A DNA stretch of 62,829 nt from Candidatus Nealsonbacteria bacterium (GTDB lineage: Bacteria > Patescibacteriota > Minisyncoccia > Minisyncoccales > DAOVPY01), in contig DAOVPY010000004.1 in the NCBI GenBank assembly GCA_030628945.1, forward strand, positions 1 to 62,829, in the 5' to 3' direction. Below the pieces are notes generated by a model. It searched no databases. It saw nothing but the letters and a program-made list of their open reading frames with translations, and was not told the DNA's origin. Both the position numbers and the translations under genes were made by a program. Positions 1,828-50,454 of the stretch are shown here, piece after piece (position 1 is the stretch's first letter; every line of letters begins with the position of its first letter).

Positions 1828-3141
1828 ATGAATAAAAAGATTTTGATATTTATTGTGGCAGGAATACTTATAGCAGGCCTTGGCGTGGGAAGTTATTTCT
1901 TTTTAGTTCCCCGTTGCCCTGAATCTTGCGATGACGGAAATCCCTGCACCCAAGATTTCTGTTCTCCTGAAACCAATTATCAATGTGAGCATTCTTTGAT
2001 AGTTGGAACTACCGAGGGTTGTCAGGGCTTAGTAGAAACCTGTAAACAATATCAGTGCGTAGAAAGTGAATGTCAGATTGTCGCTTTGGCAGATTGCTGC
2101 GGCAATGGAAAATGTGAGGCAGGAGAAGATTTTGAAACCTGCTCTCAAGATTGCGAAAGGTGCGACGATGGAAATCCTTGCACTCAAGACATTTATTCTT
2201 ATAAAACTGGTAAATGTTCTTATATTAAGATAGATGGAAAACAGCCCGGCTGTTCAGCCAAAATTACTTGCGGCAGTCAAACCTGCAAAGCAGGAGTATG
2301 TCAGATAGAATATATATCAAATTGTTGCGGGAATAAGATTTGCGAAGCTGGAGAAACTTATGAGACCTGTTCCGCAGATTGTCCGAGTTGTGATGATAAA
2401 AACGAGTGCACAATAGATGAATACGATTATCATAAACATAAATGTGTCAATACGCCAATCCTTGATGTTATTTGTTGCGGTAACGGGGTCTGCGAAACAG
2501 GGGAGGATTACGAAAACTGCGCCAAAGATTGCCCGAATTGCGATGATAACAATAAATGCACAAAAGATAGCTATGATTACCATAAACAAAAGTGCATCAA
2601 TGAGATTATCATCCCTTGTTGCGGCAATGGAATATGCGATGAAGATACTGAGGAATACTCAAATTGTCCGACAGATTGTCCAAACTGTGACGATAATAAC
2701 GAGCTTACCGAAGATAGTTTTAACTACACAACCCAGAAGTGCGAGCATATTACCCCTCCATCAATTACTGTTACTTCACCCAGCGGAGGAGAAAAGTGGA
2801 TAATCGGAAATACATATGAAATTAGTTGGAGTTGTAAAAACATTTCTGAAAACAGACTTTCTTTTAGATATTTTGTTAATATACATCTTCTTCAGAACGA
2901 TTCCTTTTACGGAAAATTCAGGACAATTGCTATCGGGGGAATGTCGGGTTATGCCTATCATGCCATTAGTGAAGGATGTGTTTTCAACGGGACAAATAGT
3001 TATTCCTGGCTGGCCGGAGATATAATAGGAGGCGCGGGTCCGGGTGATAACTTTCAGGTTAAAATAGAATTAGAAACTCTTGAAGGAGCATTGATTGTAA
3101 GCGATATTAGCGAAGGTTATTTTACCTTTATAGAGCCCTGA
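1828..3141 (+). CDS. Cysteine-rich repeat surface protein with C-terminal Ig-like domain
   Basis: N-terminal TM anchor; repeated CDDGNPCTQD / CCGNGxCExGExxxxCxxDC motifs; ITVTSPSGGEKW...YEISW Ig-like start. Confidence 0.85.
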   Translation: MNKKILIFIVAGILIAGLGVGSYFFLVPRCPESCDDGNPCTQDFCSPETNYQCEHSLIVGTTEGCQGLVETCKQYQCVESECQIVALADCCGNGKCEAGEDFETCSQDCERCDDGNPCTQDIYSYKTGKCSYIKIDGKQPGCSAKITCGSQTCKAGVCQIEYISNCCGNKICEAGETYETCSADCPSCDDKNECTIDEYDYHKHKCVNTPILDVICCGNGVCETGEDYENCAKDCPNCDDNNKCTKDSYDYHKQKCINEIIIPCCGNGICDEDTEEYSNCPTDCPNCDDNNELTEDSFNYTTQKCEHITPPSITVTSPSGGEKWIIGNTYEISWSCKNISENRLSFRYFVNIHLLQNDSFYGKFRTIAIGGMSGYAYHAISEGCVFNGTNSYSWLAGDIIGGAGPGDNFQVKIELETLEGALIVSDISEGYFTFIEP

Positions 3142-3143
3142 AA

Positions 3144-4334
3144 ATGAAACAAAAAATCGTTGAAAAAATAAAAAAACAACTTTTGGGAGAAATTGAGGGG
3201 CTGAAAGATAAAAAAGGGTTTATACAGGCCGGGGCGCCCAGGTTTCTCGGGCTTTACGGCCGGGATTCTTTGATTACGGCCTGGCAAATGCTGGATTTTG
3301 ACCCAAAAATTGCCAGGAATACTCTTTTAATTTTGGCGAAATTGCAGGGGAAAAAAATAAATCCGAAAACCGGCGAAAAACCGGGAAAAATTCTACATGA
3401 ATATTATTCAAAAAACATTACAGACGGCTGGTGGAAAAAATATAAAAAATACGACCCATGGCTTAAGAGAGGGGAGCCGTTTTATATGTCGGTTGACAGC
3501 ACTCCTCTTTTTTTGATAGTTCTGGCGAAATATTATCGCCAAACAAAAGACAAGGAACTTATTTTAAAACTTTTACCAAATGCCAAAAAAGCCATAGATT
3601 GGCTTATAAATTATGGGGGATTAAAAGATGGATTTCTTAGGCACAGTAAAAGAAAAACGGGAAAAGGTTTAGCCAGCCAAAGCTGGAAAGACGGCGCAGG
3701 AAATCCAATGGAAAAAATGGACGGGCCCATTGCCGTTGCTGAGGTTCAGGGATACGCGTATCTGGCGTTAAAAGAAACCGCAAATCTTGCTAAAATTTTA
3801 AACGAAGAAAAATTGGCTGGCGAACTTTTAGAAAGAGCTAAAATTTTTAAAAAAGATTTTAATGAAAAATTTTGGATGGAAGACAAGCAATACTTTGCTT
3901 TGGCCTTAGATAAAAAAAATAAGCAAAAAAAATCAATTACTTCAAATCCCGGGCATCTTTTATTCACCGGAATTTTAGATAAAAAGAGAACTAAAATAGT
4001 GACGAAAAGATTGTTTGAAAAAGATATGTGGACGCCTTTTGGGGTTAGAACTCATTCAACTATAGAGTCAGATTTTAATCCCTTAAGCTATCAAAATGGC
4101 GCTGTTTGGCCCCACGACAATTGGATTATCGCCCAGGGTCTGAAAAAATTAGGATATAAGAAAGAATACAATAAAATAAAAAACGCGCTCTTGCGAGCGC
4201 ATCAAGAAATTGGATTTATTCCGGAATTTTACGGCGTAGTGGACAATAAAATTATCTTAAAAAAAATGGACAGGATAATCTGCCATCCCCAGGCCTGGGC
4301 TTCGGCCGCTTTACTTAATTTTCTTTTGCGATAG
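3144..4334 (+). CDS. Amylo-alpha-1,6-glucosidase-like glycoside hydrolase ((alpha/alpha)6 barrel, catalytic domain only)
   Basis: Motifs AGAPRF..YGRDSLI, GKILHE, SVDSTPLF, SWKD, EVQGY, NPGHLL, YQNGAVWPHDN, PEFY, PQAW. Confidence 0.85.
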   Translation: MKQKIVEKIKKQLLGEIEGLKDKKGFIQAGAPRFLGLYGRDSLITAWQMLDFDPKIARNTLLILAKLQGKKINPKTGEKPGKILHEYYSKNITDGWWKKYKKYDPWLKRGEPFYMSVDSTPLFLIVLAKYYRQTKDKELILKLLPNAKKAIDWLINYGGLKDGFLRHSKRKTGKGLASQSWKDGAGNPMEKMDGPIAVAEVQGYAYLALKETANLAKILNEEKLAGELLERAKIFKKDFNEKFWMEDKQYFALALDKKNKQKKSITSNPGHLLFTGILDKKRTKIVTKRLFEKDMWTPFGVRTHSTIESDFNPLSYQNGAVWPHDNWIIAQGLKKLGYKKEYNKIKNALLRAHQEIGFIPEFYGVVDNKIILKKMDRIICHPQAWASAALLNFLLR

Positions 4335-8687: not shown

Positions 8688-10448
8688 ATGTTCAACTCAC
8701 CAATTGAGGAAATTAAAAATCGGCTGGATATAGTAGAAGTAATCGGCGATTATATTAAACTTCAAAAGGCCGGGGCGAATTATCGGGCGCCCTGTCCCTT
8801 TCATTCGGAGAAAAATCCTTCTTTTTTTGTTTCGCCAAGCCGCCAAATTTGGCACTGCTTCGGCAGCTGTTCGGAGGGCGGCGATATTTTCAAATTTATA
8901 ATGAAAATTGAAGGAGTGGAATTCCGCGACGCTTTAAGGATTTTAGCCAAGAAAGCCGGAATAGAATTAAAAAAACAAGACCCCAAAATAAGAACGGAAA
9001 GAGAGCGGCTTTATGAAATTTGCGAGATTGCCTGCCGATTTTTTGAAACCCAGCTTCAAGAAAGCAAAATTGGGCAGGAAGCCGGGAAATATCTTTTAGA
9101 GAGGAGAATAAACAAAGAGAGTATGAAAAAATGGCGGCTCGGCTACGCTCCAGATGTCTGGCAGGGATTATCTGATTTTTTAGCGGCAAAAGGATACAAA
9201 AAACAAGAAATTGAAAAAGCCGGGCTTGCGATTAAATCAGCGAACAGCGAACAGCGAACAGCGAACAACTATTACGATAGATTTAGGGGGCGGATAATGT
9301 TTCCCATTTTTGACCTGAGTTCCCAAGTGGTCGGATTTACCGGCAGAATTTTCAATAAAAAAGAAGAAATTGCAAAATATTTGAATACGCCAAACACTCT
9401 CTTATACGACAAAAGTAGGATTCTTTACGGTTTAGACAAGGCAAAGCTGGCAATTAGAAAAAAAGACAGGTGTATTTTAACAGAGGGCCAAACCGATGTG
9501 ATTATGTCCCATCAGGCAGGAATTGAAAATGCGGTAGCAACCTCGGGCACCGCTTTGACCGCTTATCAGCTTTTTATTCTAAAAAGATACACGGAAAATT
9601 TAATCACTGCTTTTGATATGGACATGGCAGGCGATTCAGCGACCAAAAAAGGAATTGATTTAGCTCAAATGAAGGGATTTAATATAAGGATAATCGTGAT
9701 GCCCAAGGATTTAGACCCTGCCGATGTTGCGGCAAAGAATCCCGAGGACTGGAAAAATCTTACAAAAAAATCCAAATCTATTCTGGAATTTTATTTTGAT
9801 ACCACTTTCGCTTGTTTTGATTTCAGGACGCCGGAGGGCAAAAAAGAAATCGCGAGAATTCTTCTGCCAATAATCAAAAGAATTCCCAACCGAATTGAAC
9901 AATCCCATTGGCTTCAGCAGCTTGCTAAAAAAATAGAAGTAAAAGAAGAAGACGTGGAAATAGAACTGAAGAAACTTTCCTCTGCGAGCAGTCAAGTAAG
10001 AGAAAAAGAAATACAAGAAAAAATCCCTGAAACCAGTCATAAAACTCGAAGAGAACGGCTGGAACAAAGGATTCTTTCTTTGGTCTTAAAATCGCCCAAA
10101 AATGTTTTTCTTTTGGACAAAGAATACCTGCCTTTTTTTTCAGCGCAAACCCGGGAAATATTAAAGAATTTTGAAAAAGACCCGCGCTTCTTTGAAAAAC
10201 AAGACGCGCCCGAGGACTTGAAAGATTTTTTAAATGAGCTTTGTTTCCAGGCCGAAATAGAAGAGGGAACTGACCTGAAAAAAGAAATCCAAACCTGCTG
10301 TCTGGAAATAAAAACCATGCAGATAAAAAACAAACTTGAGGGAATCTCCCAAAAAATAAAAAAAGCCGAGAAAGAAAACAACAAAGAAGAAGTCGGCTCA
10401 CTTACTCAAGAATTCAACGCCCTTTGCTTCAAATTAAACCATAAATAA
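8688..10448 (+). CDS. dnaG: DNA primase
   Basis: CPFHSEKNPSF zinc finger, YDRFRGRIMFPI, KYLNTP, TOPRIM EGQTDVI...AFDMDMAG. Confidence 0.97.
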   Translation: MFNSPIEEIKNRLDIVEVIGDYIKLQKAGANYRAPCPFHSEKNPSFFVSPSRQIWHCFGSCSEGGDIFKFIMKIEGVEFRDALRILAKKAGIELKKQDPKIRTERERLYEICEIACRFFETQLQESKIGQEAGKYLLERRINKESMKKWRLGYAPDVWQGLSDFLAAKGYKKQEIEKAGLAIKSANSEQRTANNYYDRFRGRIMFPIFDLSSQVVGFTGRIFNKKEEIAKYLNTPNTLLYDKSRILYGLDKAKLAIRKKDRCILTEGQTDVIMSHQAGIENAVATSGTALTAYQLFILKRYTENLITAFDMDMAGDSATKKGIDLAQMKGFNIRIIVMPKDLDPADVAAKNPEDWKNLTKKSKSILEFYFDTTFACFDFRTPEGKKEIARILLPIIKRIPNRIEQSHWLQQLAKKIEVKEEDVEIELKKLSSASSQVREKEIQEKIPETSHKTRRERLEQRILSLVLKSPKNVFLLDKEYLPFFSAQTREILKNFEKDPRFFEKQDAPEDLKDFLNELCFQAEIEEGTDLKKEIQTCCLEIKTMQIKNKLEGISQKIKKAEKENNKEEVGSLTQEFNALCFKLNHK

Positions 10449-12288: not shown

Positions 12289-13749
12289 ATGTATTTTCCC
12301 ACAATCGGTTTGGAAATCCACGCCGAACTAAAAACAAAATCAAAAATGTTTTGCAGCTGCGCAAACGACCCGGATGAAAAGCAAGCCAATATTAATATTT
12401 GTCCTGTTTGCATGGGACATCCCGGCACTCTGCCGGTAATAAATGAACAAGCAAAAAGAAAAGTGATAAAAACCGGACTAGCTTTGAATTCTCAAATCCC
12501 GGAATATTCTAAATTTGACAGGAAAAATTATTTTTATCCGGATCTCCCCAAGGGCTATCAGATTTCTCAGTATGATATGCCTCTTTGCAAGGGGGGATTT
12601 TTAGAAATCAACAAAAGAAAAATACGAATAACAAGAATCCATTTAGAAGAAGATACTGGTAGTTTAGTCCATCCGCGAAAAGCGGATTATTCTTTGGTAG
12701 ATTTTAACAGAGCAGGACGGCCTTTAATGGAATTAGTTACCGAACCGGATATTCATTCAGCGCGCGAAGCAAGAAAGTTTGCCGAGGAATTGCAATTGAT
12801 TTTAAGGTATTTAGATGTTTCTGAGGCAAATATGGAAAAAGGACAAATGCGCGTTGAAGTGAATATATCGCTTCAACGCAAATCCAAAATCCAAAATCCA
12901 AAACTTGGGACTAAAGTTGAAATTAAGAACCTTAATTCGTTTCGCGCGGTGGAGAAGGGGATTGAATATGAAATTAAGAGACAGGGAGAAGTTTTAGAAA
13001 AAGGGGGAAAAATAATTCAAGAGACCAGGGGCTGGCACGATGTAAAACAAATTACTATTAGCCAAAGAGAAAAAGAAGAGTCACATGATTACCGTTACTT
13101 TCCTGAACCGGACCTTCCAATAATAAATATCAAAAATCAAATGATAAATCTGAATAAAATACAAGCGGAGATTCCGGAACTGCCGCGGCAAAGAAGAAAA
13201 AGATTTAAAAAAGAATATGGATTAGACGAAAAATCCACCGAGGTTTTTGTTCAAAACAAAAATTTGGGAGAATATTTTGAAAAAGCGATTTCTGAATTGA
13301 AAAATTGGGCTAAAATCAAAAAAATCAAATTTGGCGCGGATTTAATCAAATTGACCTCAAATTACCTTATTAATGAACTTATAGGAATAGCCGGCAGGGA
13401 TTTTAAGTTCCATGAAAAAATTAGTCCGGAAAATTTCGCCGAGTTTATCACCCTAATTTGCCAAAGCAAAATCTCAAGCAAAATCGCCAAAATAGTTTTA
13501 AAAGAAATGTTAAATACTGGCGCGGATCCCTCTCATATTATTGAGGAAAAAAAATTAACTCAAATAACCGATGAGTCAGAAATAGAAAAAGTTATCAAAA
13601 AAGTAATTTCTACTAATCCCAAACCTGTAGAAGATTACAAAAAAGGAAAGCAAAACGCTCTCCAATTTTTAATCGGCCAGATAATGGCAGCCACAAAAGG
13701 CAAGGCAAATCCCGAAACAGTCAACAAAATTTTGAGAAAATTCCTTTAA
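12289..13749 (+). CDS. gatB: Asp/Glu-tRNA amidotransferase subunit B
   Basis: IGLEIHAEL, FDRKNYFYPDLPKGYQISQ, HLEED, DYRYFPEPDLP. Confidence 0.98.
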   Translation: MYFPTIGLEIHAELKTKSKMFCSCANDPDEKQANINICPVCMGHPGTLPVINEQAKRKVIKTGLALNSQIPEYSKFDRKNYFYPDLPKGYQISQYDMPLCKGGFLEINKRKIRITRIHLEEDTGSLVHPRKADYSLVDFNRAGRPLMELVTEPDIHSAREARKFAEELQLILRYLDVSEANMEKGQMRVEVNISLQRKSKIQNPKLGTKVEIKNLNSFRAVEKGIEYEIKRQGEVLEKGGKIIQETRGWHDVKQITISQREKEESHDYRYFPEPDLPIINIKNQMINLNKIQAEIPELPRQRRKRFKKEYGLDEKSTEVFVQNKNLGEYFEKAISELKNWAKIKKIKFGADLIKLTSNYLINELIGIAGRDFKFHEKISPENFAEFITLICQSKISSKIAKIVLKEMLNTGADPSHIIEEKKLTQITDESEIEKVIKKVISTNPKPVEDYKKGKQNALQFLIGQIMAATKGKANPETVNKILRKFL

Positions 13750-15127
13750 GTCCCCAGGGGATGGCGCCGGTGACTTTAACTTTCACGAATTTCCCGACTA
13801 AATCTTGTAACTTGTAACTTGTAACTTGTAACTTAATAGTTTTGTAATTTTTTGTTTTGCCGACTAACCAACCCTTTCGTTCGTATTCCAACCCGCCTCG
13901 CCTCGCCCGCGAGTCGGGCGAGGCGGGCAGAACTTCAACAATTTTTCCAATATATTTTTTATTATTTTCCAAAGCAATTTTCTTGAGGACTTTGGTCAAA
14001 TTTTTTTCTCTTGTCTTTTTTGCTTGCAAAGATACAGTATCTTTCATTTTGAACGCCGCGGTGCCCGAGCGAGGGGAATATTGAGCGATATAAGCCATAT
14101 CCGGCTTGATTTCTTTAAACAATTTGATTGTATTTTCAAATTGTTTTTTTGTTTCCCCGGGAAAGCCCACGATGACATCGGTAGAAAAAAAGACATTTGG
14201 AATTTTGCAGCGGATTTTTTTAATTAAATTTTTATATTGAGCCACGGTGTAGGGCCGGTTCATTTTTTTTAAAATCGCGGGGTCTCCGGACTGGACCGGC
14301 AAACTGATATATTTTGTCACCTTTTTACATTGAGCAATTGTCTCAATCAACTCGTTGGAAAAATCCTTGGGATGCGAAGAAGTAAACCTAATCCAAAACT
14401 CCCCTGGAATATCATTTATCATCCTTAATAATTTAGCAAAATTAACTACTCTCTTATTCACGCGAATAAGAGAGTGGTAGCTGTTGACGTTTTCGCCGAG
14501 AAGCCATATCTCCTTATACCCCTTTTTGACTAAATTTTTTACTTCTTTCAAAATGTCGTCTGTTGGTCTGGAAATTTCCACACCCCTGGTGTAGGGAACT
14601 ACGCAATAAGAGCAAAAGTTATTGCAGCCGATAATAATCGGAATGTAAGCCGAAAAATTGTTGCGATATTCTGGTTTGATTTTCAAGTAATTACAGTTTG
14701 AATGACAGAGACCTGTTCTCTGCCATTTAGCAGATTTACGGAGAACAGTTCTCCGTTGATTTACGGAGAACTGTTCTTTATTCCGCTCTTTTTTTAGGAA
14801 GTTTTTCCAATGGGGCAGGCTTTTAATGGATAAAATATAATCAAACCTTGTTTGAAATTTTTTCAAATCATATTCAAGAACACAGCCGGTTAATAAAATT
14901 TTTAGTTTGGGATTTTTTCTCTTTAATTTGATAAAATTTTTAATTTGGCCATAGACCCGGTCAACTGCTGATTGCCGAACGGAGCACATATTAACCACAA
15001 TCAAATCCGCCTCCCCCATTTTTGAACAGGATTTATAGCCGATTTTTTCCAAAACCGCTGCAATCCGCTCGCTGTCTGAAACATTGAGCTGGCAGCCATA
15101 GGTGATGATGAAATATTTTTTAGACAT
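13721..15127 (-). CDS. miaB: tRNA-i6A37 methylthiotransferase (radical SAM)
   Basis: TYGCQLN, NMCSVR, GCNNFCSYC, YSPRSGT, C-terminal TRAM domain. Confidence 0.93.
   Translation of the reverse strand: MSKKYFIITYGCQLNVSDSERIAAVLEKIGYKSCSKMGEADLIVVNMCSVRQSAVDRVYGQIKNFIKLKRKNPKLKILLTGCVLEYDLKKFQTRFDYILSIKSLPHWKNFLKKERNKEQFSVNQRRTVLRKSAKWQRTGLCHSNCNYLKIKPEYRNNFSAYIPIIIGCNNFCSYCVVPYTRGVEISRPTDDILKEVKNLVKKGYKEIWLLGENVNSYHSLIRVNKRVVNFAKLLRMINDIPGEFWIRFTSSHPKDFSNELIETIAQCKKVTKYISLPVQSGDPAILKKMNRPYTVAQYKNLIKKIRCKIPNVFFSTDVIVGFPGETKKQFENTIKLFKEIKPDMAYIAQYSPRSGTAAFKMKDTVSLQAKKTREKNLTKVLKKIALENNKKYIGKIVEVLPASPDSRARRGGLEYERKGWLVGKTKNYKTIKLQVTSYKLQDLVGKFVKVKVTGAIPWGLKGIFSKFC
13892..13927. repeat. 36-bp in-frame palindromic insertion in miaB
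   Basis: CCCGCCTCGCC...GGCGAGGCGGG; encodes PASPDSRARRGG; much more GC-rich than flanks. Confidence 0.75.
14706..14777. repeat. Cluster of CGGAGAAC(A/T)GTTCTCCG-type palindromes in-frame in miaB
   Basis: Copies at 14706-14722 (degenerate), 14739-14755 and 14764-14777 (truncated); same family as 54098-54143. Confidence 0.75.
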
Positions 15128-15213: not shown

Positions 15214-17784
15214 TTATCTGTTGATTTCTTGCTCTTTTTCAATTGCTTCCATTTTCATCGCTTCCATTTCAATTGTTTCTGTTCTCATCGGTTCTATAAT
15301 TCGCTGGAATTCTGTTTCTATTTTTTCAAAAGTAGAGGGAACTTCCTTTATTGATTGTTCTGATGTCTGTGATTTTTCAGCGAGGTTTTTTTCACATTCT
15401 TCCTTAGTTCCAAAAGTCCGCAGCCCTAAATACATATACACGCCACAAAAGGTTTTTTGCTGGCAGACTTGATACCTATCATCATGCCACCACAAAATTC
15501 TACATTCCCCGCCAAAATGCTGCTGATATTCATGGGAAGGAAGAATTACTTTTTTACATACTCCTTTACAGGCGATTTCTACTCCCGCAAGTTTAGCGAA
15601 ACAATCGTTACTATAAGTTTTGCCGTCTTTGCCGCAAACCGGATCAAAAATTTGGGCGCAAACCCGTTCTCCGTCCGGAGTGATTTTTTCTCGCAGAATT
15701 TCTCTGTGAATTTCCCGCTCTAAACTTAGTTCTTCTTCAACTGGATATCTTTCCGGAGATATAATTCGTTCCTTAAATTCTCCGGGTAAAGGAATTGCCT
15801 CTGAGGGAAATTCCTGTTTGAATTGTTTTTCAAACATTTCTCTTCTTATATTTTCTTCCTCAAACAGTTTTTCTTCCAGCCGTTTTTCTCCCCATTCCCG
15901 GCGCAAGGATATGTCTTTTATAATTCGGCAGGCATTATTCGCCTCAAGGAAAGCAGCTGTTGCCTGACCAAACGCCTCACCGTAAAATTTATTATCATAG
16001 GCTTCTTGAGCCGAGGCAATTTTCTTTTGAGCGTTGGTTAAAAGCACCCGGAAAGGGCTTCTTTGAGTTATTTCATTTTTGGTCTCATCGTCTAATGCCG
16101 CGAATTCTTCCTCTGCCGCAATAATCTCTTTTTTTGCCTGTTCAAGGCGCGCTAACGGTTTTTCCGGACTCATCTCCTTAAAAAAGATATCTTCCCGCGC
16201 TTCAATTTTTTGGAAGATTTGAGGATACCGGTTTTCCAATTCTCTCATTATTGTTTCATCTTCTTCAATCCTTGTTTTTAGAAATTCTAATTTAATAACA
16301 TCTTCGGTTGTTTCAATTCTTTTAGAAAGTTTTTCCATTTGTTCCTTCAAGATTTCCGTCATTATCTCTCGTGGGGCGCCAAATTCTTTGATAATGGCAA
16401 TATGTTCTGGCGCGTCTCCTGCTAATTTCTCAAACTTCATTCTTCTTTGTTCCGCGGTTTTTGCTCTTTCAATATCTTGTTTCATTTCTTTCATTGCTTT
16501 TTCTTTCATTTCTTCCCAAAATTCTTTTTTCTCTTCAGGAATAAATTCGTCCATTTCCTTAAACATTTCAAACTGTTTTACATCATGAAATTTCTCCAAT
16601 TCTTTGAAAAAAACCTCTTGTTTCTCCGGAGTGTCGGCACTTAAGACATTTTCTTTAAGGTTCATCATTGTCTTATTTTTAACTTCCAATATTTTATCAA
16701 TTACCTCGCGCGGAAGATTATTTTCTAATTCGTTGACAATTCTCAAATTTTCCATCTGGCCTTCTTCCAAATGCCGCAGGAACATTTTTTTCTCATTCTC
16801 CATTTCTTGTTTTTCAAACTCTTTCATTCTTTTTTCAATTTTAACAATGGCTTTTTCTTTGGCTTTCTCCATTTCTTCTCTGATAATTTCCGGAATTTCC
16901 TCTGCTTCAAAATGGTGAATAATTTCCATATGTCTTACTTCGTTGCCGCCGATTTGTTCCACATAATTTCCAAACTTTTCTCTGTCCTCAAACGACATTC
17001 CCTCAAAATCTCCGTGGAGCCGCTGGAATGCGTTATCTTGAGCCATCCTTATAGCGTCTTTGGCTTGCTCTGGAACTTTTTCCTCTAATTGCTGAAGAAT
17101 TTCTAAATTTTTGAAGTATTTGAAATTGCTGCCAGGCTGTTCTTCCATAACAGCGATAATTTTCTCCTGGAATTGTTCCGGCTCTATAAATTTCAGTCCG
17201 ATGTCAGAAAATTTCATCATATTTTCCTCTTTGGTTTTTTCTATCATTTCAAACATTTCTAACGGCAGTTCTTTCGCGAGTTTCCCGAATAATTTTTGAT
17301 GTTTTAAATTATGGTCAATGAATTTATCCATAAATTTCTCAACATTCGGGTCGTCTATGGTTTCCTTTATTTTTTCAGCTGCTTTTTCCAAACGCTCGGC
17401 CTCTTTTTGATAGTTTTCAAAAGCCCTGTCCAAAATTTCCTGTTCTTCCGGACGTTCTTCGGCTAATTTTTTTACCTCTATCAGTTTTTCATCAACAAAT
17501 TTTTGTTTAAGTTCAGCTTTTTTTACCGGATTAAAAGTAATAAGCGACTGAATTCCCCGCCCCATTTCTTTCAAAAAATAAAAAGGGCTGTCCGGCAAAA
17601 TCCGCGGCTCTTTTACGCCCAAATCTTGGGCCTGAATATTCTCATCAAGCGCAACCTCTGCTATTTCAGGAATAGTTATTTCTCTTTCCGGCGCGTCTGC
17701 CTCCTGAGCCAGCGCGGCTGAAAAAGTCCCTATCGCTAAACAAACAGCGATTAAGGATATAAAAAGTTTGGTTGAATAAAACAT
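15214..17784 (-). CDS. Large secreted DUF5667-like helical protein with Kazal-type domain
   Basis: Signal peptide; ILPDSPFYFLKE..F.PVKKAEL motif; CAQIFDPVCGKDGKTYSNDC Kazal motif. Confidence 0.85.
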   Translation of the reverse strand: MFYSTKLFISLIAVCLAIGTFSAALAQEADAPEREITIPEIAEVALDENIQAQDLGVKEPRILPDSPFYFLKEMGRGIQSLITFNPVKKAELKQKFVDEKLIEVKKLAEERPEEQEILDRAFENYQKEAERLEKAAEKIKETIDDPNVEKFMDKFIDHNLKHQKLFGKLAKELPLEMFEMIEKTKEENMMKFSDIGLKFIEPEQFQEKIIAVMEEQPGSNFKYFKNLEILQQLEEKVPEQAKDAIRMAQDNAFQRLHGDFEGMSFEDREKFGNYVEQIGGNEVRHMEIIHHFEAEEIPEIIREEMEKAKEKAIVKIEKRMKEFEKQEMENEKKMFLRHLEEGQMENLRIVNELENNLPREVIDKILEVKNKTMMNLKENVLSADTPEKQEVFFKELEKFHDVKQFEMFKEMDEFIPEEKKEFWEEMKEKAMKEMKQDIERAKTAEQRRMKFEKLAGDAPEHIAIIKEFGAPREIMTEILKEQMEKLSKRIETTEDVIKLEFLKTRIEEDETIMRELENRYPQIFQKIEAREDIFFKEMSPEKPLARLEQAKKEIIAAEEEFAALDDETKNEITQRSPFRVLLTNAQKKIASAQEAYDNKFYGEAFGQATAAFLEANNACRIIKDISLRREWGEKRLEEKLFEEENIRREMFEKQFKQEFPSEAIPLPGEFKERIISPERYPVEEELSLEREIHREILREKITPDGERVCAQIFDPVCGKDGKTYSNDCFAKLAGVEIACKGVCKKVILPSHEYQQHFGGECRILWWHDDRYQVCQQKTFCGVYMYLGLRTFGTKEECEKNLAEKSQTSEQSIKEVPSTFEKIETEFQRIIEPMRTETIEMEAMKMEAIEKEQEINR

Positions 17785-17792
17785 AAAAATAG

Positions 17793-17918
17793 AATTTCTA
17801 ATTCCTAATTAACCTAATGTCTAATCAATACCCAATGTCCAAAAACCAATGACCAAAAAATTTAGATATTAGAAATTGGGATTTGGGATTTGATTAGAAA
17901 TTAGAAATTAGAAATTAG
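17793..17918. repeat. Heptamer-built foldback element, copy E1
   Basis: Left arm of CTAAT/CCAAT-type 7-mers, right arm of their reverse complements; shares exact 19- and 15-bp blocks with E2-E4. Confidence 0.85.
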
Positions 17919-17925
17919 TTATTTA

Positions 17926-19560
17926 TTAATGTATTTCTTCTTTTTTCTCTTTTAAAAAATATCGCCACTGTTCCAGAAATCCCACAAAAGTCAGGAAAGG
18001 GGCGTCAATTAAAATGGCTATTATTAAAGATATATTCAGTTTTGTCCATCTTGCCGAAAGCCATTTTCCCGCCTGAACAACTGGCAGGAAAAAGAAATCA
18101 AGAAGGGATTTGAAAAATGTTTCTTTCTTTTCCTCTATGGTTAATTCTTTATTTCTTTCTCTGATTCTCATCCCAAAAAAACTAATAACCGAAATAAAGA
18201 AAAGGAAAATAATCATAGAGAGAATCCCGAAATTTAATTTTTGAAGCGCCCAAATTATTATACCAAAAGAAACAAGAAAAGTTAAGAAATAAAAACCCAC
18301 GATTATACCTTGCATAATTTTTCCTCTTTTTTTCGGTATTTTTATTTCATAAACATCCTTTTGCTTCCGTTGAAAAATAAGTTTCATAACTTCCATCATT
18401 ATCACCTTAAGATTTTCTTTTTTCGGCGGCTTGATAGTGGCTACCAGAAAAAACATTAAAAGGGGAGGAAAGAGAACATTAATCCATAAAACCGAATAAC
18501 TAAACTCGTGAGTTAGATATTTGTCAACCGGAATTTCAATGGCTAAAGCCAGGGCTATTTTGGTAATAAATATAGAAAGGGTGCTGTAAATTGCGGCTCG
18601 CTTTGTCCTTTTTTTAAGTTTAATAAGCCGCTTGCCATATGCTTTTTCAATGAGTTCCTCTAATATCTCCGGTTTGGCGAGATTTTCTTCGGCTCTATTC
18701 GGGTCCTCGGCTATAATATCTCCTAAAATTAGATAAGAGGTGTCGTATTTTTCGCAGATATTATAGAATTTATCAGCCAAAGGATGATTTAAACTTGCTT
18801 CAATGCTTTCTTTTATAGAAAAAATATTTTGAGCGATAGCTGAAAGCAAAGGAGAAGGGGGAGTAAGTTCAAGCCATCCTGAATATCGCTTTTCTAAAAG
18901 ATTATAACCGATAGTGGAAGAATCCAATTTAAAAAGAGCCCTCTGAACCGCTATATAAATTTGGCTTTTTTCCTCTTCTTCGCTTAAGCCTTTTATGGCT
19001 ATAATTCCTTCTTTAACCCTTATTCGCTCCTGCATAAATTGGGTCATATATTCTATTAAATACTCTTCTTTTGAGCAGGAAGATAAGGTTTTTTCCAATT
19101 CATAACTGGCAATTTCCAAAAGCCAATTTCGGAGACAGACTTTTTCTTTTTCCCGGGTTTCTGTTGCTTCCGGGGAAGCAGGGGACAAGGGAGCAGAATT
19201 TTCTAAAATAAAAAAATGCTTATTTAAAATTTTCTGAACCTTTGTAATTTTTGTTTCCGGAATAGCGTCATTGGGAAAATGACCGCCCCTGATGAGTTCG
19301 TAGACCAGGGATTCGGCTATTTCTTTGTTCTTTTGATTTAAAATAATTCTTCTCTTCAGAATCCGTTCAATAGCCCGCTTTCTTAAAAGATGTTCCTCTT
19401 CCCAGTCCACCACTCCTTTTATTTTTTCATAAAAAGCCGCTACTCGCGAAGCGACCTCATCAACGTGGATAAAAGAAACACCCTCCTTTGGCTGAAGGGA
19501 TTGATGCCATGCCTGGTATTTTTCAATAAGTTGTTGAGTTGGCTGAGATATTGTATTCAT
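17926..19560 (-). CDS. Hypothetical multi-pass membrane protein
   Basis: 544 aa; soluble N-terminal region followed by several TM helices. Confidence 0.85.
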   Translation of the reverse strand: MNTISQPTQQLIEKYQAWHQSLQPKEGVSFIHVDEVASRVAAFYEKIKGVVDWEEEHLLRKRAIERILKRRIILNQKNKEIAESLVYELIRGGHFPNDAIPETKITKVQKILNKHFFILENSAPLSPASPEATETREKEKVCLRNWLLEIASYELEKTLSSCSKEEYLIEYMTQFMQERIRVKEGIIAIKGLSEEEEKSQIYIAVQRALFKLDSSTIGYNLLEKRYSGWLELTPPSPLLSAIAQNIFSIKESIEASLNHPLADKFYNICEKYDTSYLILGDIIAEDPNRAEENLAKPEILEELIEKAYGKRLIKLKKRTKRAAIYSTLSIFITKIALALAIEIPVDKYLTHEFSYSVLWINVLFPPLLMFFLVATIKPPKKENLKVIMMEVMKLIFQRKQKDVYEIKIPKKRGKIMQGIIVGFYFLTFLVSFGIIIWALQKLNFGILSMIIFLFFISVISFFGMRIRERNKELTIEEKKETFFKSLLDFFFLPVVQAGKWLSARWTKLNISLIIAILIDAPFLTFVGFLEQWRYFLKEKKEEIH

Positions 19561-21209: not shown

Positions 21210-24200
21210 TTATTTTTCTTCCACGATTTCTTCTATTTCCTGGCAGATAATTTTTGCCACGCCGTCGCGATTGTCCACCCGTCCTTTAACAATAACAATT
21301 TTGTTTTCCTGAAAAATATCGGGATTTTGTTCAATAATTGAGGGGAAGACAACCAATTCAATTTTATTTGTTTGGTCTTCCAATTTCACAAAAAGCATTG
21401 GTTTGCCGGTTTTAGTGATGATTTTTTTAATTGAAGAAATTACGCCTGCGGATTTTACTATTTTGCCGGTTAAATCCTGGGAGATTTTTATTAAGGGCAG
21501 GACGGTTTTTCCAAACGCCTTTTTGAAATCTTCCAAGGGATGGCTGGAAATATAAAGGCCTAAAAGCTCTTTTTCCCATTTTAATTTTTCTTTTTTTGAA
21601 GCCGGGGGCGCCGGCGAAAGAAAAAGACCGTTATTATTGGATTTTATTCCGTCAAAAAGCCCTTTTTGCCCGTTTGCCTTGTTTTTTTGGGTTTCCCTGC
21701 TCCATTCCAAAAATTTTTCCAAATTTACAAGAAGTTTATTTCTCTCTTCAAACTTGTCAAACGCCCCTGCTTTAATTAAACTCTCCAAAGACCTTTTGTT
21801 CAAATTTTTTGTAGAAATCCTGGTGACGAAATCAGTCATAGAATCAAAATGCTTATTTTTCTTTCTTTCTTCAACTATCGCTTCAACTACATTATAGCCC
21901 ACATTTTTAATGGCTAAAAGCCCGAAACGGATTTTTTTCTGTCCCGGAATAACGCTGAAATTTCTAAAACTTTCATTAATATCAGGCGCGAGAACTTCTA
22001 TTTTCATTCTTTTGCACTCTTCTATCAAGAAAGCGATTTTTTCAAGGTCCTGCCTTTCCGAAGTGAGAACAGCCGCCATAAACTCTATTGGATAATGGAC
22101 TTTCAAATAAGCGGTGCGGTAGGCAATCATTGCGTAGGACGCCGCGTGGCTCCTGTTAAATGAGTAGCTGGCAAAGGGCTCAATCCAATGCCAAATTTTT
22201 TCCATAATTTTTGCGTCTATTCCATTCTTCTTTCCGTTGTTAATAAATTTCTCTTTCTGTCCCAAAAGAAGCTCTTTAATTTTTTTACCAATCGCTTTTC
22301 TTAAAATATCTGCTTCTGCTAAAGTAAATCCGGCTAATTCCTGGGCAATCTGCATAACCTGCTCCTGATATACAATTATATTGTAAGTTTTTTTCAAAAT
22401 CGGCTCTAATTTTGGATGAAGATATTCAATTTTCTTTTTTCCGTGTTTGCCTTTGATGTATTCGGGAATAAATTGCATGGGCCCTGGCCTGTACAAAGCC
22501 ACCATCGCAATAATATCTTCAAACTCGCTTGGCTTAAGCTGTTTTAGATATCTTTTCATTCCATCGCTCTCAAGTTGAAAGACCGATGTGCTTTCTCCTT
22601 TTGCCAAAAGTTCATAGATTTTTTTGTCATCAAGGGGAATATCCTCTATTTTTAAAGATTTATTCTGAACCTTGTAAATGCGGCTTAGAGTGTCTTCAAT
22701 AATAGTTAGATTTTTTAATCCCAAAAGGTCAAGTTTTAATAACCCCAAATCATCAATGGAATGAAGCTCATATTGGGTAACGATTGCTTTATCATTTTGT
22801 GTCGGATGTTGAAGCGGCACTATTTCTGTTAATGGTTCTTTGGAAATGACCACGCCGCAGGCGTGAGTAGAAGCGTGCCGCGCGACTCCTTCTAATTTTT
22901 TAGCCAGATCAATCAACCGAGTTGCTTTTTCATCGGATTGATAAATGTCCCTGAATTCATCAATTTTTTTAAGGGTTTCATCCAGAGTAAAGCCAAAAGG
23001 AATAAGCTTGGCAAGATGATCGCAAAAAGTATAAGAATATTGAAGCGCTCTGCCCACGTCGCGAATTACGGCCCTGCTTGCCATTGTGCCAAAAGTAATA
23101 ATCTGAGCCACCTTATCCCGACCATATTTTTGAGCAATGTAGTTTATCACTTCGTCCCTTCTCCAATCAGTGAAATCAATATCAAAATCCGGCATTGAAA
23201 CGCGCGAAGGATTTAAAAAACGTTCAAATATCAATCCATATTTTATTGGATTAATGTCAGTAATATTCAACAGATAGCATGCCAATGAACCGGCATCGCT
23301 GCCTCTGCCAGGACCCACAACAATCCGATTTTCTTTTGCCCAGTTGACAAAATCCTGCACAATAAGAAAAAAGGGCGCAAATTTGGTTTGTTTTATTATT
23401 GAAAGTTCGTATTCTAATCGTTTTATCGCCTCCTGCTCATTTGCGATTTGCGATTTGCGATTTTCCAATCCTTGTTCGCATAACTCTTTTAGATATTCAT
23501 CAGCTGTTTTATTTTCCGGCGCTGGAAAATATGGTAATTTCATTTCTCCGAGCTTAAAATCAAAATTACACTGCTCTTTAATTTTTTGAGTGTTTTCAAT
23601 CGCTTCGGGCGTTTTTTTGAAGAATTCGGCCATTTTTTCCGGCGAGTGTATGGAAAAATCGTCTGATTTCATTGTTAAACGGCCAGGGGCATCTGGTTTT
23701 GAACCGGTATTAATAAGCATTAAAATATCCTGGGCTTCCGCGTCTTCTATTCGCAAATAATGGCAGTCATTGGTGGCAACAAGAGGGATGTTTAATTTTT
23801 TGGAAAAGTCAATCAGCCCGTCATTGGCTTTTTGCTGTTCTCGCAGATTAGGATGGTGTTGAATTTCCAGATAAAAATTATCTTTGTTAAAAATTTTTTG
23901 ATATTTTAAAATAGTTTTTTCCGCTTCATCAGTTTTATTAGAAATAATCATTTGAGGAATTTTCCCGCGGATACAAGCAGTCATACCAATCAATCCCTTG
24001 CTGTATCGCGCCAACAACTCTTCGTCAATCCTGGGTTTATAATAAAAACCCTCTAAATGGGCTTTGGTTACCAATTTAACTAAATTTTTATAACCCTCTT
24101 CATTCTTAACCAGCAAGACCAGGTGATATCTTTTGTCGTCAATGTTCGGCCTTTTTTGGTCCATTCCCTCATAACTCATATATACTTCGCAGCCAATAAT

Positions 24201-24386
24201 CGGCTTTATTCCTTTTGCTTTGGCTTTTTTATAAAATTCCACAGCGCCGTAAAGAACCCCGTGGTCCGTAAGGGCGACAGAATCCATTCCCAGCTTCTGG
24301 ACATAATCCAAAAGCTCGTCAATCTTTGGCAGACCATCAAGCAGGGAATAGTGAGAATGAACGTGTAAATGGGTGAATTTGGACAT
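21210..24386 (-). CDS. dnaE: DNA polymerase III alpha subunit
   Basis: PHP HLHVHSHYSLLDG, GRGSDAGSL, PDFDIDF, FNRSHA, C-terminal OB fold; no intein seen. Confidence 0.98.
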   Translation of the reverse strand: MSKFTHLHVHSHYSLLDGLPKIDELLDYVQKLGMDSVALTDHGVLYGAVEFYKKAKAKGIKPIIGCEVYMSYEGMDQKRPNIDDKRYHLVLLVKNEEGYKNLVKLVTKAHLEGFYYKPRIDEELLARYSKGLIGMTACIRGKIPQMIISNKTDEAEKTILKYQKIFNKDNFYLEIQHHPNLREQQKANDGLIDFSKKLNIPLVATNDCHYLRIEDAEAQDILMLINTGSKPDAPGRLTMKSDDFSIHSPEKMAEFFKKTPEAIENTQKIKEQCNFDFKLGEMKLPYFPAPENKTADEYLKELCEQGLENRKSQIANEQEAIKRLEYELSIIKQTKFAPFFLIVQDFVNWAKENRIVVGPGRGSDAGSLACYLLNITDINPIKYGLIFERFLNPSRVSMPDFDIDFTDWRRDEVINYIAQKYGRDKVAQIITFGTMASRAVIRDVGRALQYSYTFCDHLAKLIPFGFTLDETLKKIDEFRDIYQSDEKATRLIDLAKKLEGVARHASTHACGVVISKEPLTEIVPLQHPTQNDKAIVTQYELHSIDDLGLLKLDLLGLKNLTIIEDTLSRIYKVQNKSLKIEDIPLDDKKIYELLAKGESTSVFQLESDGMKRYLKQLKPSEFEDIIAMVALYRPGPMQFIPEYIKGKHGKKKIEYLHPKLEPILKKTYNIIVYQEQVMQIAQELAGFTLAEADILRKAIGKKIKELLLGQKEKFINNGKKNGIDAKIMEKIWHWIEPFASYSFNRSHAASYAMIAYRTAYLKVHYPIEFMAAVLTSERQDLEKIAFLIEECKRMKIEVLAPDINESFRNFSVIPGQKKIRFGLLAIKNVGYNVVEAIVEERKKNKHFDSMTDFVTRISTKNLNKRSLESLIKAGAFDKFEERNKLLVNLEKFLEWSRETQKNKANGQKGLFDGIKSNNNGLFLSPAPPASKKEKLKWEKELLGLYISSHPLEDFKKAFGKTVLPLIKISQDLTGKIVKSAGVISSIKKIITKTGKPMLFVKLEDQTNKIELVVFPSIIEQNPDIFQENKIVIVKGRVDNRDGVAKIICQEIEEIVEEK

Positions 24387-24419
24387 AAACGAAATATAGA
24401 GAATTATTGGGCAACTATA

Positions 24420-24565
24420 AATATCTAATATCTAATTTCTAATTTCTAATCAAATCCCAAACCCCAATGTCTAATATCTAAATTTTTTTTGGTCATTGGT
24501 CATTGGACATTGGGTATTGATTAGGTCAATTGGGTCAATTGGGTTAATTAGGAATTAGAAATTTT
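24420..24565. repeat. Heptamer-built foldback element, copy E2
   Basis: CTAATCAAATCCCAA (24446-24460) and GACATTGGGTATTGATTAG (24506-24524); reverse orientation to E1. Confidence 0.85.
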
Positions 24566-24697
24566 ATTATTCTATTATATCTCTTGCTTTTTTTTCTGGC
24601 AAATTTTTTTTGCACTGAATCCTTTAAAGTTTTCCACAGGATTTTTATTACTCAATTTTTTGTTGATTATTTTTCTTTCTTGGGATAGAATAAAAAA

Positions 24698-25957
24698 ATG
24701 AGGCAAACCCGGCTTTTTAGCAAAACAATCAGAGAAGCGCCAAAAGATGAAAAATGCCTTAATGCCCAACTTTTAATTCGGGCCGGTTTTATTGATAAAT
24801 TAGCGGCCGGAATTTACACTTTTTTGCCTTTGGGCTTAAGGGTTTTGAAAAAAATTGAAAAAATTATTAATGAGGAAATGGCCGCTGTCGGCGGCGAAAG
24901 AATTTTAATGCCTGGGCTTATTCCCAAAAAAAATTGGGAGCAAACCAAACGTTGGAAGACATTTAAAGAGCTTTACAAGATTAAAGGAGAAAGCGGTCAG
25001 GAATATGGTTTGGGTTCAACTCATGAGGAAGTAGTGGTTCCATTACTTCAAAAATATGTTTCGTCTTATAAGGATTTGCCTTGTTATGTTTATCAGATTC
25101 AAACAAAATACAGAGATGAAATTAGAACGAAATCAGGATTATTGAGGGACAGGGAATTTGGAATGAAAGATTTGTATTCTTTTCACAAAGATGAAAAAGA
25201 TTTAGATTCTTACTATGAAAAAATTAAAAAAAGTTATTTCAAAATTTTGAAAAGGATAGATTTAGAAAATAAAACCTATCTAACCTTGGCTTCAGGCGGC
25301 ACTTTTTCAAAATATTCTCATGAATTTCAAACCATAACCCCTGCCGGAGAGGATATCATTTATATTTGCGAAAATTGTAATTTTGCCATAAATAAAGAAA
25401 TCAAAGGCGAATATTCAAAATGCCCTGAATGCAGGGGCAAAAAATTCAGACAGGAGAAAGCCATAGAAGTAGGCAACATTTTTAAACTTGGAACAAAATA
25501 TACCAAGCCGTTTAATTTTGAATTTACTGACAAAGACGGTTCAAAAAAATTAGTAGTAATGGGGTGTTACGGCATAGGTCCTGCTCGTTTAATGGGAACC
25601 ATCATAGAGATTCATCATGATGAAAAAGGAATAATTTGGCCCCTGTCAGTGGCGCCTTTTAACGTTCATCTATTGCCTTTGGGAAGCAAAGAAGAAAAAA
25701 TAAAAGAAAATATCAGAAAAACATCGGAAAAAATTTACAGGGATTTACAAAAAGCAAAAATTGAAGTATTATATGATGACCGAGAAGACAAAACACCAGG
25801 AGAAAAATTCGCGGACGCGGATTTGCTCGGAATACCCATCAGAATCGTGGTAAGCGAAAAGACGCTTCAAAAAAATTGCGTGGAAATAAAAAAGCGAAAT
25901 GAAAAGAAAATTAAGTTGATTAAAATAAAACACTTACCGCAATTCCTAAATTTCTAA
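24698..25957 (+). CDS. proS: Proline-tRNA ligase, short form without INS editing domain
   Basis: THEE, YQIQTKYRDE..KSGLLRDREF, EVGNIFKLG, GCYGIG, ADLLGIP; 419 aa. Confidence 0.97.
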   Translation: MRQTRLFSKTIREAPKDEKCLNAQLLIRAGFIDKLAAGIYTFLPLGLRVLKKIEKIINEEMAAVGGERILMPGLIPKKNWEQTKRWKTFKELYKIKGESGQEYGLGSTHEEVVVPLLQKYVSSYKDLPCYVYQIQTKYRDEIRTKSGLLRDREFGMKDLYSFHKDEKDLDSYYEKIKKSYFKILKRIDLENKTYLTLASGGTFSKYSHEFQTITPAGEDIIYICENCNFAINKEIKGEYSKCPECRGKKFRQEKAIEVGNIFKLGTKYTKPFNFEFTDKDGSKKLVVMGCYGIGPARLMGTIIEIHHDEKGIIWPLSVAPFNVHLLPLGSKEEKIKENIRKTSEKIYRDLQKAKIEVLYDDREDKTPGEKFADADLLGIPIRIVVSEKTLQKNCVEIKKRNEKKIKLIKIKHLPQFLNF

Positions 25958-26080
25958 TTTCTAATTTCTAATTTCTAATCAAATCCCAAATCTCAATTTC
26001 TAATGTCTAAATTTTTGGTCATTGGATATTGGTTATTGGATATTGATTAGGTCAATTAGGTCAATTAGGAATTAGACATT
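25941..26080. repeat. Heptamer-built foldback element, copy E3 (overlaps proS stop)
   Basis: (ATTTCTA)n, CTAATCAAATCCCAA 25975-25989, right arm TTGATTAGGTCAATTAGG. Confidence 0.85.
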
Positions 26081-26088
26081 TCAATTTT

Positions 26089-27135
26089 GTGTTAAACAAA
26101 TTTCTCTCCCATTTTCATCAAGACATTGCCATTGATTTAGGGACCGCCAACTCCCTGGTTTATGTTCGGGATAGGGGAATCGTGATTTCCGAGCCCTCGG
26201 TAGTGGCGGTAAACCAAAAAACCGGCCAGATTTTAGCTATCGGCGACGAAGCTAAAAAAATGGTTGGCAGGACTCCCTCCAATATTGTCGCGGCGCGGCC
26301 ATTGGTAAAAGGAGTGGTTTCTGATTTTGAGATTACCGAACAAATGTTAAAATATTTTCTTGAAAGAGTTCGCGGAAAAACTCTTAGTCTCAGGCCGCGG
26401 GTAATTATCGGCATTCCCTGCGGCGTTACCGAAGTGGAAAGAAAGGCGGTCCAAGACGCAACTAAAAACGCCGGGGCAAGAGAAGTTTATTTAATTGAAC
26501 AACCCATGGCCGCCGCAATCGGCGCTCGTCTTCCAATCCAGGAAGCGGCCGGAAATTTTATTGTTGACATCGGCGGCGGAACTACCGAGGTCGCTGTAAT
26601 TTCGCTGGGCGGACTGGTCCTTTCAAAGAGCCTGCGGATAGCGGGAGATAAACTCAATCAAGATATAATTTACTTCAGTCAGGAAGAATATAAACTTTTA
26701 ATAGGAGAACGGACTGCTGAAGAAATTAAAATCGCTATTGGTTCCGCTTATCCGTTGAAAGAGAAAAAAGAGATGCCGATGCGAGGCAGGAATTTAGCGA
26801 CCGGCTTGCCGGAAGAAATTACGGTTTCAGATGAAGAAATAAGGCGAGCCCTGAAAAAATCGGTCGGGGAAATTGTTAACGCTGTCAAAACCACGGTAGA
26901 GGAAACGCCCCCGGAATTGCTCGCCGACATTATGTCAAAGGGAATCTGTCTGGCAGGCGGCGGTTCTCTTTTAAAAGGATTAGATTCTTTAATCACAAAA
27001 GAAACCAAAATTCCCGTCAAAATCATTGACGATCCCTTAACCGCCGTAGCCCGGGGCGCCGGTATGGTTTTGGAAAATCTTGATGAATTACAAGAGGTTC
27101 TGATAGAAACAGAACAATTAGAACTGCCAAAATAA
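26089..27135 (+). CDS. mreB: Rod shape-determining protein MreB (GTG start)
   Basis: IAIDLGTAN, EPSVVA, IVDIGGGTTEVAVISLGG, LAGGGSLL. Confidence 0.97.
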   Translation: MLNKFLSHFHQDIAIDLGTANSLVYVRDRGIVISEPSVVAVNQKTGQILAIGDEAKKMVGRTPSNIVAARPLVKGVVSDFEITEQMLKYFLERVRGKTLSLRPRVIIGIPCGVTEVERKAVQDATKNAGAREVYLIEQPMAAAIGARLPIQEAAGNFIVDIGGGTTEVAVISLGGLVLSKSLRIAGDKLNQDIIYFSQEEYKLLIGERTAEEIKIAIGSAYPLKEKKEMPMRGRNLATGLPEEITVSDEEIRRALKKSVGEIVNAVKTTVEETPPELLADIMSKGICLAGGGSLLKGLDSLITKETKIPVKIIDDPLTAVARGAGMVLENLDELQEVLIETEQLELPK

Positions 27136-27702: not shown

Positions 27703-28413
27703 ATGATTAAATTTGATATTATTACAATCTTTCCGGAAATTTTTAATTCTTATTTTCAGGAATCCCTTATCAAACGCGCCGTTAAAAAACGGCTGATTAA
27801 GATTAATATCCGAAATTTAAGGGATTATACCGCTGATAAACGCCATACTGTTGACGACCGTCCCTTTGGGGGAGGCATTGGAATGGTGTTAAAAATTGAA
27901 CCGATATATCAATGCGTTCAGCGAATATTAAGCAAAAAACCTAAAACCTGTAACCTAAAACCTAAAACCTTAACAATATTATTTACGCCGAGAGGAAAAA
28001 AATTTAATCAGAAAATGGCTTATCAATTTTCTAAATTGGACCGGCTGATTCTGATTTGCGGCAGATATGAAGGCGTGGATGAAAGAGCGGCAAAGCATAT
28101 CGCTGATATGGAATTATCCATCGGCGATTATGACTTAATGGGCGGCGAACTGCCGGCAATGGTGGTTGTTGAAACAATATCCCGCTTAATTCCAGGAGTA
28201 ATCAACAATCCCCAGCTGTTAAAAGAAAGAATCCCAACTGCGAGCAACAGGGACGGAAGGGGATTTATTGAATACCCGCAATATACCCGACCCGAAATTT
28301 TTTCGCCTTGCTCTCGCCAAAAAGAAATAAAGTGGCGAACGCCAAAAGTTTTATTATCGGGGGACCACAAAAAAATCGCTGACTGGCGGAAAAAACACTC
28401 AAAAATAATATGA
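27703..28413 (+). CDS. trmD: tRNA (guanine37-N1)-methyltransferase
   Basis: VDDRPFGGGIGM, CGRYEGVDER, SIGDYDLMGGE, EYPQYTRP. Confidence 0.97.
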   Translation: MIKFDIITIFPEIFNSYFQESLIKRAVKKRLIKINIRNLRDYTADKRHTVDDRPFGGGIGMVLKIEPIYQCVQRILSKKPKTCNLKPKTLTILFTPRGKKFNQKMAYQFSKLDRLILICGRYEGVDERAAKHIADMELSIGDYDLMGGELPAMVVVETISRLIPGVINNPQLLKERIPTASNRDGRGFIEYPQYTRPEIFSPCSRQKEIKWRTPKVLLSGDHKKIADWRKKHSKII

Positions 28414-50382: not shown

Positions 50383-50454
50383 TAAAAACGCAAAACGCAA
50401 AACGCAAAATAACAGTTTAAAACTTAAAAAAACTTTTAATTTAGCGAAGCGCTT

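Follow-up and report, generated by a model that had tools for sequence, protein, structure and literature searches.

Four foldback copies in the window

The stretch of DNA analysed here, which we call the window and which is 62,829 nt long in full, contains four copies of a foldback element, E1 to E4, which a first-pass annotation of the same letters had already listed with slightly narrower bounds. The copies, with their orientation relative to the family and the features needed to place them, are as follows.

15214-17784, minus strand: DUF5667/Kazal gene of 856 aa, neighbour of E1
17789-17924, family orientation plus: E1, an ORF-less foldback (nhmmer 130 bits, E 2.8e-38)
17849-17872, plus strand: loop of E1, ATGACCAAAAAATTTAGATATTAG, read directly from the sequence
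17926-19560, minus strand: unknown gene of 544 aa, neighbour of E1
24418-24567, family orientation minus: E2, a foldback (nhmmer 124.9 bits; alignment)
25947-26084, family orientation minus: E3, a foldback between proS and mreB (26089-27135, plus; nhmmer 119.2 bits)
46530-46671, family orientation plus: E4, a foldback between dnaK (46654-48543, minus) and dnaJ (45414-46526, minus; nhmmer 114.3 bits)

E1 fills its spacer, with gaps of 4 and 1 nt to the flanking ORFs, while E2 lies between the divergent genes dnaE (21210-24386, minus) and proS (24698-25957, plus), as named by Pfam searches of the neighbours. Two of the copies take part in the ends of genes, as had been claimed: E3 supplies the TAA stop (25955-25957) of proS, whose identity we confirm, and the stop codon of dnaK (46654-46656) lies inside E4.

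All four share one architecture, the arms of which were described at first pass: a left arm of xxCTAAT/xxCCAAT heptamers, then an A-rich loop, then a right arm of ATTGG/ATTAG units. The arm heptamers form a series of related, non-identical units, and Tandem Repeats Finder (TRF) reports period-7 rows, that is, a tandem 7-nt array, inside every window copy. When E1 and E4 are read on the plus strand and E2 and E3 on the minus strand, the alignment has 79% mean column identity; E4 is the most diverged of the four and E2 has two additional 9-nt units in one arm. The two exact shared blocks reported earlier are present, CTAATCAATACCCAATGTC at 17821 and 46562 (plus) and 24506 (minus), and CTAATCAAATCCCAA at 24446 and 25975 (plus) and 17883 and 46629 (minus). 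The arms, 20-44 nt long and 70-94% complementary, close a long stem, and on both strands the predicted minimum free energy lies between -32 and -47 kcal/mol (z -4.0 to -8.5), with 0 of 200 shuffles folding as well. For E1 the values are -32.5 kcal/mol on the plus strand and -43.9 on the minus strand, with z of -4.8 and -7.7.

The window also holds other tandem heptamer arrays, perfect or near-perfect: CAGCGAA at 9238-9267, AAATCCA at 12880-12903 and CTTGTAA at 13804-13834, and further on ATTTGCG at 23439-23463, AAAACCT at 27936-27974 and AAAACGC at 50385-50409.

A family of intergenic copies with filled and empty sites

A profile built from E1-E4 finds 14 full copies (E 1e-26 to 1e-38) in the 825-kb, 17-contig genome of this ultra-small Patescibacteria organism, each about 135 bp long and with a median pairwise identity of 90%. 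Read in its better direction a copy scores roughly 100-130 bits, and in the opposite one 40-60; the element is therefore polar, an imperfect palindrome. The family termini are the inverted repeats AAATTTCTAATT and AATTAGAAATTT; heptamer numbers differ from copy to copy, an ordered series of different heptamers is common to all 14, and the 21-mer GGGATTTGGGATTTGATTAGA is invariant. All 14 lie in intergenic DNA, as a rule with gaps of 0-10 nt to the ORFs on either side, and the junctions are co-directional, divergent and convergent in the proportion 12:2:0, which matches the 607:60:66 of the genome as a whole. The four repeats of the window are genuine copies of a small DNA element that is probably mobile.

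It had been noticed that E1, E3 and E4 all read the same way relative to transcription. This holds for those three, but it does not extend to the genome: among the 12 copies between co-directional genes (the other two lie between divergent genes), 6 are sense and 6 antisense, and the agreement within the window is thus a matter of chance.

Elsewhere in the genome, one copy (C16:22428-22598, given as contig:positions) carries in its right arm a nested 38-bp GC-rich hairpin insert (GCAACCCTACGGGGAGTCTTCCGCTAAAAGCGGAATCCAGG), of which the genome holds no second full copy. There are also solo arms, that is, arrays of these or similar heptamers that stand on one side only, with no complementary partner, at C4:4992-5045, C7:7840-7906, C9:16018-16049 and C3:22785-22857; the one on C7 is followed by a GC hairpin.

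Beyond this genome the distribution is patchy. Of 41 same-order genomes searched, 22 contain family matches, among them the relative G035 with about 20 full copies, and the genome of the same family contains none. Exact copies of the invariant 21-mer occur in 18 contigs among 185,579 species genomes, mostly of Patescibacteria (Saccharibacteria, Berkelbacteria, Portnoybacteria, Nealsonbacteria, Curtissbacteria and Parcubacteria), and many of these contigs carry full-length look-alikes. At the related loci Rfam reports nothing except tRNAs.

Filled and empty sites are seen between genomes of different families: gene pairs that the element splits in G035 stand 5-35 nt apart here. Within the species no filled/empty pair of alleles turned up, the sole contig with an identical protein being from the same strain. 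The junction occupied by E4 offers a broader sample, 68 related contigs from a metagenome scan with DnaJ identity of at most 71%. In these the dnaK-dnaJ spacer is bimodal, being 2-65 nt long in 45 contigs and 80-214 nt long and filled by a foldback in the other 23. These 23 foldbacks are mostly short-word arrays of many different word families, and one of them (locus L135) belongs to the same family as E4 and has the opposite orientation. Moreover, the two arms covary. A hinge that is specific to each lineage has changed on both sides with pairing kept, reading CTAATCAA/TTGATTAG in this genome, CTAACTAA/TTAGTTAG in ten G035 copies and CTAATAAA/TTTATTAG in the relative G036. We find no target-site duplication, the longest flank repeat averaging 2.14 nt at the copies and 2.08 nt for mismatched flanks. 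The label "MITE-like" of the first-pass annotation nevertheless fits a family that is multi-copy and intergenic and has terminal inverted repeats and both filled and empty sites.

Gene-bearing cassettes and 23S rRNA intervening sequences

The same annotation had raised the possibility that the element is a shell, left empty when a cassette lost its cargo gene. Copies that enclose an ORF between the same arms do exist, one in this genome on contig C7 and others in relatives (loci L073, L074 and L079). The C7 cassette is laid out as follows.

C7:9302-9379: left part of the element (model positions 12-85)
C7:9390-9734: intact ORF of 114 aa
C7:9889-9938: right part of the element (model positions 88-134)

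The ORF belongs to PF05635 (23S_rRNA_IVP, E 1.8e-14) and to TIGR02436, "four helix bundle protein" (77.7 bits), and its product matches PDB entry 2RLD, which has five chains in the crystal. In G036 (L073, L079) and G035 (L074) the same PF05635 gene is bracketed exactly by a CTAAT arm on one side and an ATTAG arm on the other, and lineage-specific arm variants are common to the cassettes and the short forms. A profile search finds no ORF other than PF05635 between these termini. Some copies of the cassette gene in G035 and G036 contain stop codons. The cassette ORF is under purifying selection, with pN of 0.20-0.38 against a saturated pS of 0.66-0.86.

In G035 the relation between long and short forms is explicit. 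The 495-nt cassette and the short elements are 88-100% identical over nt 15-85 and again over nt 428/444-485 of the cassette, the first shared block keeps the start codon and four further codons (ATGAACAAAAAG), and the short form of G035 derives from the cassette by deletion of nt ~86-427, just as the shell idea had it. For the local family, a similar origin is suggested by the loop of the window copies, ATGACCAAAAAATTTAGAC, which resembles the ORF starts of the relatives (ATGAACAAAAAGTTTGAC..., that is MNKKFDLEERTAKFGE, in G035 and ATGACTAAAAAC... in G036), and the E1 loop is likely a remnant of a cassette ORF start. We therefore infer that the local short forms also derive from a cassette, with the derivation clean for G035 only. 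In the C7 cassette the ORF follows model position ~85, whereas in G035 it sits in the loop, and the C7 ORF is followed by a nested short element that is complete, so that descent of the local family from this particular cassette is no more than a possibility.

On the same contig lies a diversity-generating retroelement (DGR, locus L075). Its target gene encodes 651 aa and has a variable region at the C-terminal end; the other parts are an Avd-like gene of 114 aa (2097-2441), a template repeat and a gene for reverse transcriptase (2582-4075).

The name of the Pfam family leads to ribosomal RNA. In G036 a complete 23S rRNA gene (L049, RF02541) contains three foldbacks of this family, two of them within composite inserts of 236 nt. 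These two inserts have the same sequence (100% identity), with a folding energy of -94.7 kcal/mol, and, judged from sequence context rather than from a numbered alignment, they appear to occupy the classical sites of intervening sequences (IVSs), helix 25 and helix 45. Such a location is seen only in G036. All 14 copies of the present genome lie between protein genes, and its own 23S gene is empty at the first two L049 sites, the sole ones on the comparable part of the gene.

The 23S gene of this genome lies on two contigs. Its 5' half is at the end of contig C4 (30946-31998), and the window carries, at 60463-62814 on the minus strand, the 5S rRNA (60463-60573) and the 23S 3' half (60628-62814, model positions 1854-2912). 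Insertions in the latter add up to about 1.1 kb, and an ORF of 197 aa within them (61445-62038) resembles a LAGLIDADG homing endonuclease.

Classical IVSs form stem-loops whose ends are inverted repeats; some have an S23p/PF05635 ORF, they are excised by RNase III, and it is an old hypothesis that the ORF serves mobility (PMC4990558). The present family resembles them in several respects: both are stem-loops closed by terminal inverted repeats and distributed sporadically, both include ORF-less forms, and the full forms of both encode a four-helix-bundle protein of about 110-130 aa, the classical ones being known from Leptospira and Coxiella burnetii (PMC4990558). On the other hand, the window copies lie between protein-coding genes, there are 14 copies in 825 kb, and the arms are tandem heptamer arrays. 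In the rRNA genes of CPR bacteria, short uncharacterised insertions have been described at 23IS2 and 23IS4, with IVP ORFs as well and with repeats unmentioned (PMC11270868); copies outside rRNA are described in neither of these two papers.

Taken together, we consider it likely that E1-E4 are non-autonomous, ORF-less copies, or shells, of a selfish foldback cassette of the IVS type. What would remain after loss of the ORF is a hairpin of some 135 bp with the arms and the first few codons still in place. Such copies would lodge in very short intergenic spacers, often giving the upstream gene its stop codon, and in relatives also inside 23S rRNA, at what sequence context indicates are classical IVS sites. 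How could insertions between co-transcribed genes be borne? Probably by RNase III cutting of the co-transcribed hairpin, by analogy with classical IVSs; the gene for this enzyme, rnc, is present (C17:157468-157863, 142.9 bits). RNase III is known to cut Correia hairpins in transcripts. A hairpin should be cuttable in either orientation, and orientation would then be irrelevant. If these elements are what we propose, gene-less cassette shells multiply between the essential genes of an 825-kb genome.

Possible routes of spread and cassettes in other phyla

Spread of the shells would need a trans-acting factor, and this is the least secure step of the proposal. Since these arms are not linked to any canonical transposase, we favour the protein that the cassette itself encodes, aided by replication or repair enzymes of the host. 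The element could instead be REPIN-like, mobilised as a folded single strand by a Y1 transposase (HUH, RAYT/IS200-like), with the four-helix-bundle gene an occasional cargo. In favour of this, the element is a foldback that leaves no target duplication, this genome has three Y1_Tnp genes, element matches occur in 16 of 21 relatives with Y1_Tnp and in 6 of 20 without (p = 0.005), and Y1 genes stand 1-3 kb from PF05635 genes in four cases (G036:C2, G003:C13, G022:C35 and G035:C9). REP/REPIN-RAYT systems likewise consist of dispersed intergenic hairpin repeats without target duplication and have a co-evolving single-copy partner gene (PMC3116915). However, REPs are short GC-rich palindromes that flank their own RAYT gene, whereas here PF05635 is enclosed, as the sole ORF found between arms, and the Y1 genes are flanked otherwise: two of the three have GC-rich hairpins of their own (GGCAGAGACCTGTTCTCTGCC; GTTTAAGGTAGAACCTTAAAC) and none has heptamer arms. 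Nor does a conserved short target motif adjoin the element, and its orientation relative to gene direction is 6:6. We therefore regard a Y1 mover as unlikely for this family; the Y1 genes are probably the movers of other small palindromes in this genome. They lie at C12:13887-14465, C5:29246-30058 and C12:33252-33995, and the two on C12 are those bracketed by GC-rich hairpins.

Still less likely, in our estimate, is an element that serves its host as RNA, an intercistronic hairpin or protein-binding array that processes, stabilises or uncouples operon mRNAs. Such a role would account for strong hairpins placed exactly between the stop and start codons of co-transcribed genes, and for arms that are conserved far above neutral expectation (the 21-mer recurs in 18 contigs) whereas the cassette ORF is saturated at its synonymous sites. 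But the orientation-dependent RNA-level role put forward at first pass is not supported, given the 6:6 split and the orthologous spacers of relatives that have no copies; in addition, the family is patchy, the dnaK-dnaJ junction is filled by unrelated word families or empty, copies occur inside rRNA, and the distribution of junction types equals expectation. A retro-element, in which a resident reverse transcriptase copies the excised hairpin RNA with an Avd-like cofactor before re-insertion, seems to us very improbable. PF05635 is indeed the family of the DGR cofactor Avd, and the DGR at C7:80-4075 lies 5 kb upstream of the C7 cassette; yet RVT_1 turns up in no more than 7 of the 41 relatives, G035 and G036 lack it although they are rich in elements and 97-100% complete, and it shows no association with the element (p = 1.0). 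We give hardly any credence to the last pair of options, a classical MITE belonging to a DDE insertion sequence, or immobile arrays that have lengthened by slippage where they stand. The terminal inverted repeats would suit the former and the varying heptamer numbers the latter, and the family does share much with bacterial MITEs such as Nezha of Anabaena/Nostoc (PMC3184786) and Correia/NEMIS of Neisseria, which are likewise 100-170 bp long, non-coding and multi-copy with terminal inverted repeats, and more generally are predicted to fold into stable hairpins, have both filled and empty sites and arise by deletion from a longer element. Unlike MITEs, the present family lacks a target-site duplication, its arms are word arrays, and the longer partner with the same ends, the only ORF-bearing form that the profile search finds, encodes a four-helix-bundle protein and no known transposase. 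As for slippage, the same heptamer order in all 14 copies together with the filled and empty sites means that growth in place cannot produce the family.

We return to the IVS-type cassette as the source of E1-E4, and to how far its gene and its arms keep company elsewhere. Among the 41 relatives, counted as raw genomes regardless of phylogeny, element DNA matches occur in 13 of 14 with PF05635 above the cut-off and in 9 of 27 without (p = 3e-4). The 8-9 relatives that have heptamer matches without PF05635 count against a tie between gene and element, and given the correlation with Y1 too, some genomes may simply be repeat-tolerant. In a wider sample PF05635 is present in 151 of 301 Patescibacteria, in up to 15 copies per ~1 Mb genome. 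Inverted arms of short, mostly 7-nt, words flank the PF05635 ORF at 38 of 53 Patescibacteria loci, against none of 106 control windows shifted by 1 kb (p = 9e-25). Arm words differ between PF05635 cassettes, and the commonest internal arm period in a 30-locus sample of the phylum is 7.

A tblastn search of 72,556 plasmids matched 32, about 26 of them cyanobacterial (Nostoc, Calothrix, Trichormus, Anabaena and others). Of 16 plasmid PF05635 genes examined, 12, mostly cyanobacterial, have inverted word arms, for example TAGGGAG x8 / TCCCTAC x5, GGGAACA x4 / TGTTCCC x7, or TCAGGAG with its complement, and the remaining 4 have non-complementary heptamer arrays on one or both sides. These arrays recall the STRR repeats of cyanobacteria, which like the present family place tandem 7-nt units in intergenic DNA; STRR-like arrays, usually inverted, flank the plasmid four-helix-bundle genes of Nostoc, Anabaena, Calothrix, Aulosira and Trichormus. 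STRRs have reportedly been described, in work of 1990 and 2008, as tandem arrays, and we know of no report that links them to a gene family. Our own search of the literature found no link between PF05635/S23p and repeats, though the older STRR papers may already describe one.

A more general proposal, which we advance only tentatively and think more doubtful than the reading of E1-E4, is that PF05635/TIGR02436 genes with short-word arms make up a widespread, so far unrecognised class of mobile cassette that spawns ORF-less foldbacks and solo arrays, its own protein recognising the arm words and driving copying without a canonical transposase. The same gene stands between inverted arms of 7-nt words in four phyla. 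If true, the class would span at least Patescibacteria, Cyanobacteria, Bacteroidota and Gemmatimonadota, and would explain the heptamer foldbacks of CPR genomes, the classical 23S IVSs and the STRR repeats of cyanobacteria alike. The present locus would then tie the function of the 23S IVS protein, a question since the early 1990s, to the origin of heptamer repeats. Annotators of tiny genomes would gain a rule for a large class of repeats that so far lack an explanation, and the idea of Ralph and McClelland that mobility is what the IVS ORF serves could now be tested directly in culturable cyanobacteria.

On the plasmids, the four-helix-bundle genes are also found wedged in operons, between cas6 and cas4 (twice), between cas10 and cmr3, and between nrdB and nrdA. 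The CRISPR-cas cases come from Anabaena sp. 90 pANA02 (L117), a Pseudanabaena galeata plasmid (L199) and a Picosynechococcus PCC 7003 plasmid (L205), the cas6-cas4 insertions being in two different cyanobacteria and the cas10-cmr3 insertion in a third. In Pseudanabaena the flanking arrays, AGCTAAA x10 and AGCCAAA x9, are direct rather than inverted.
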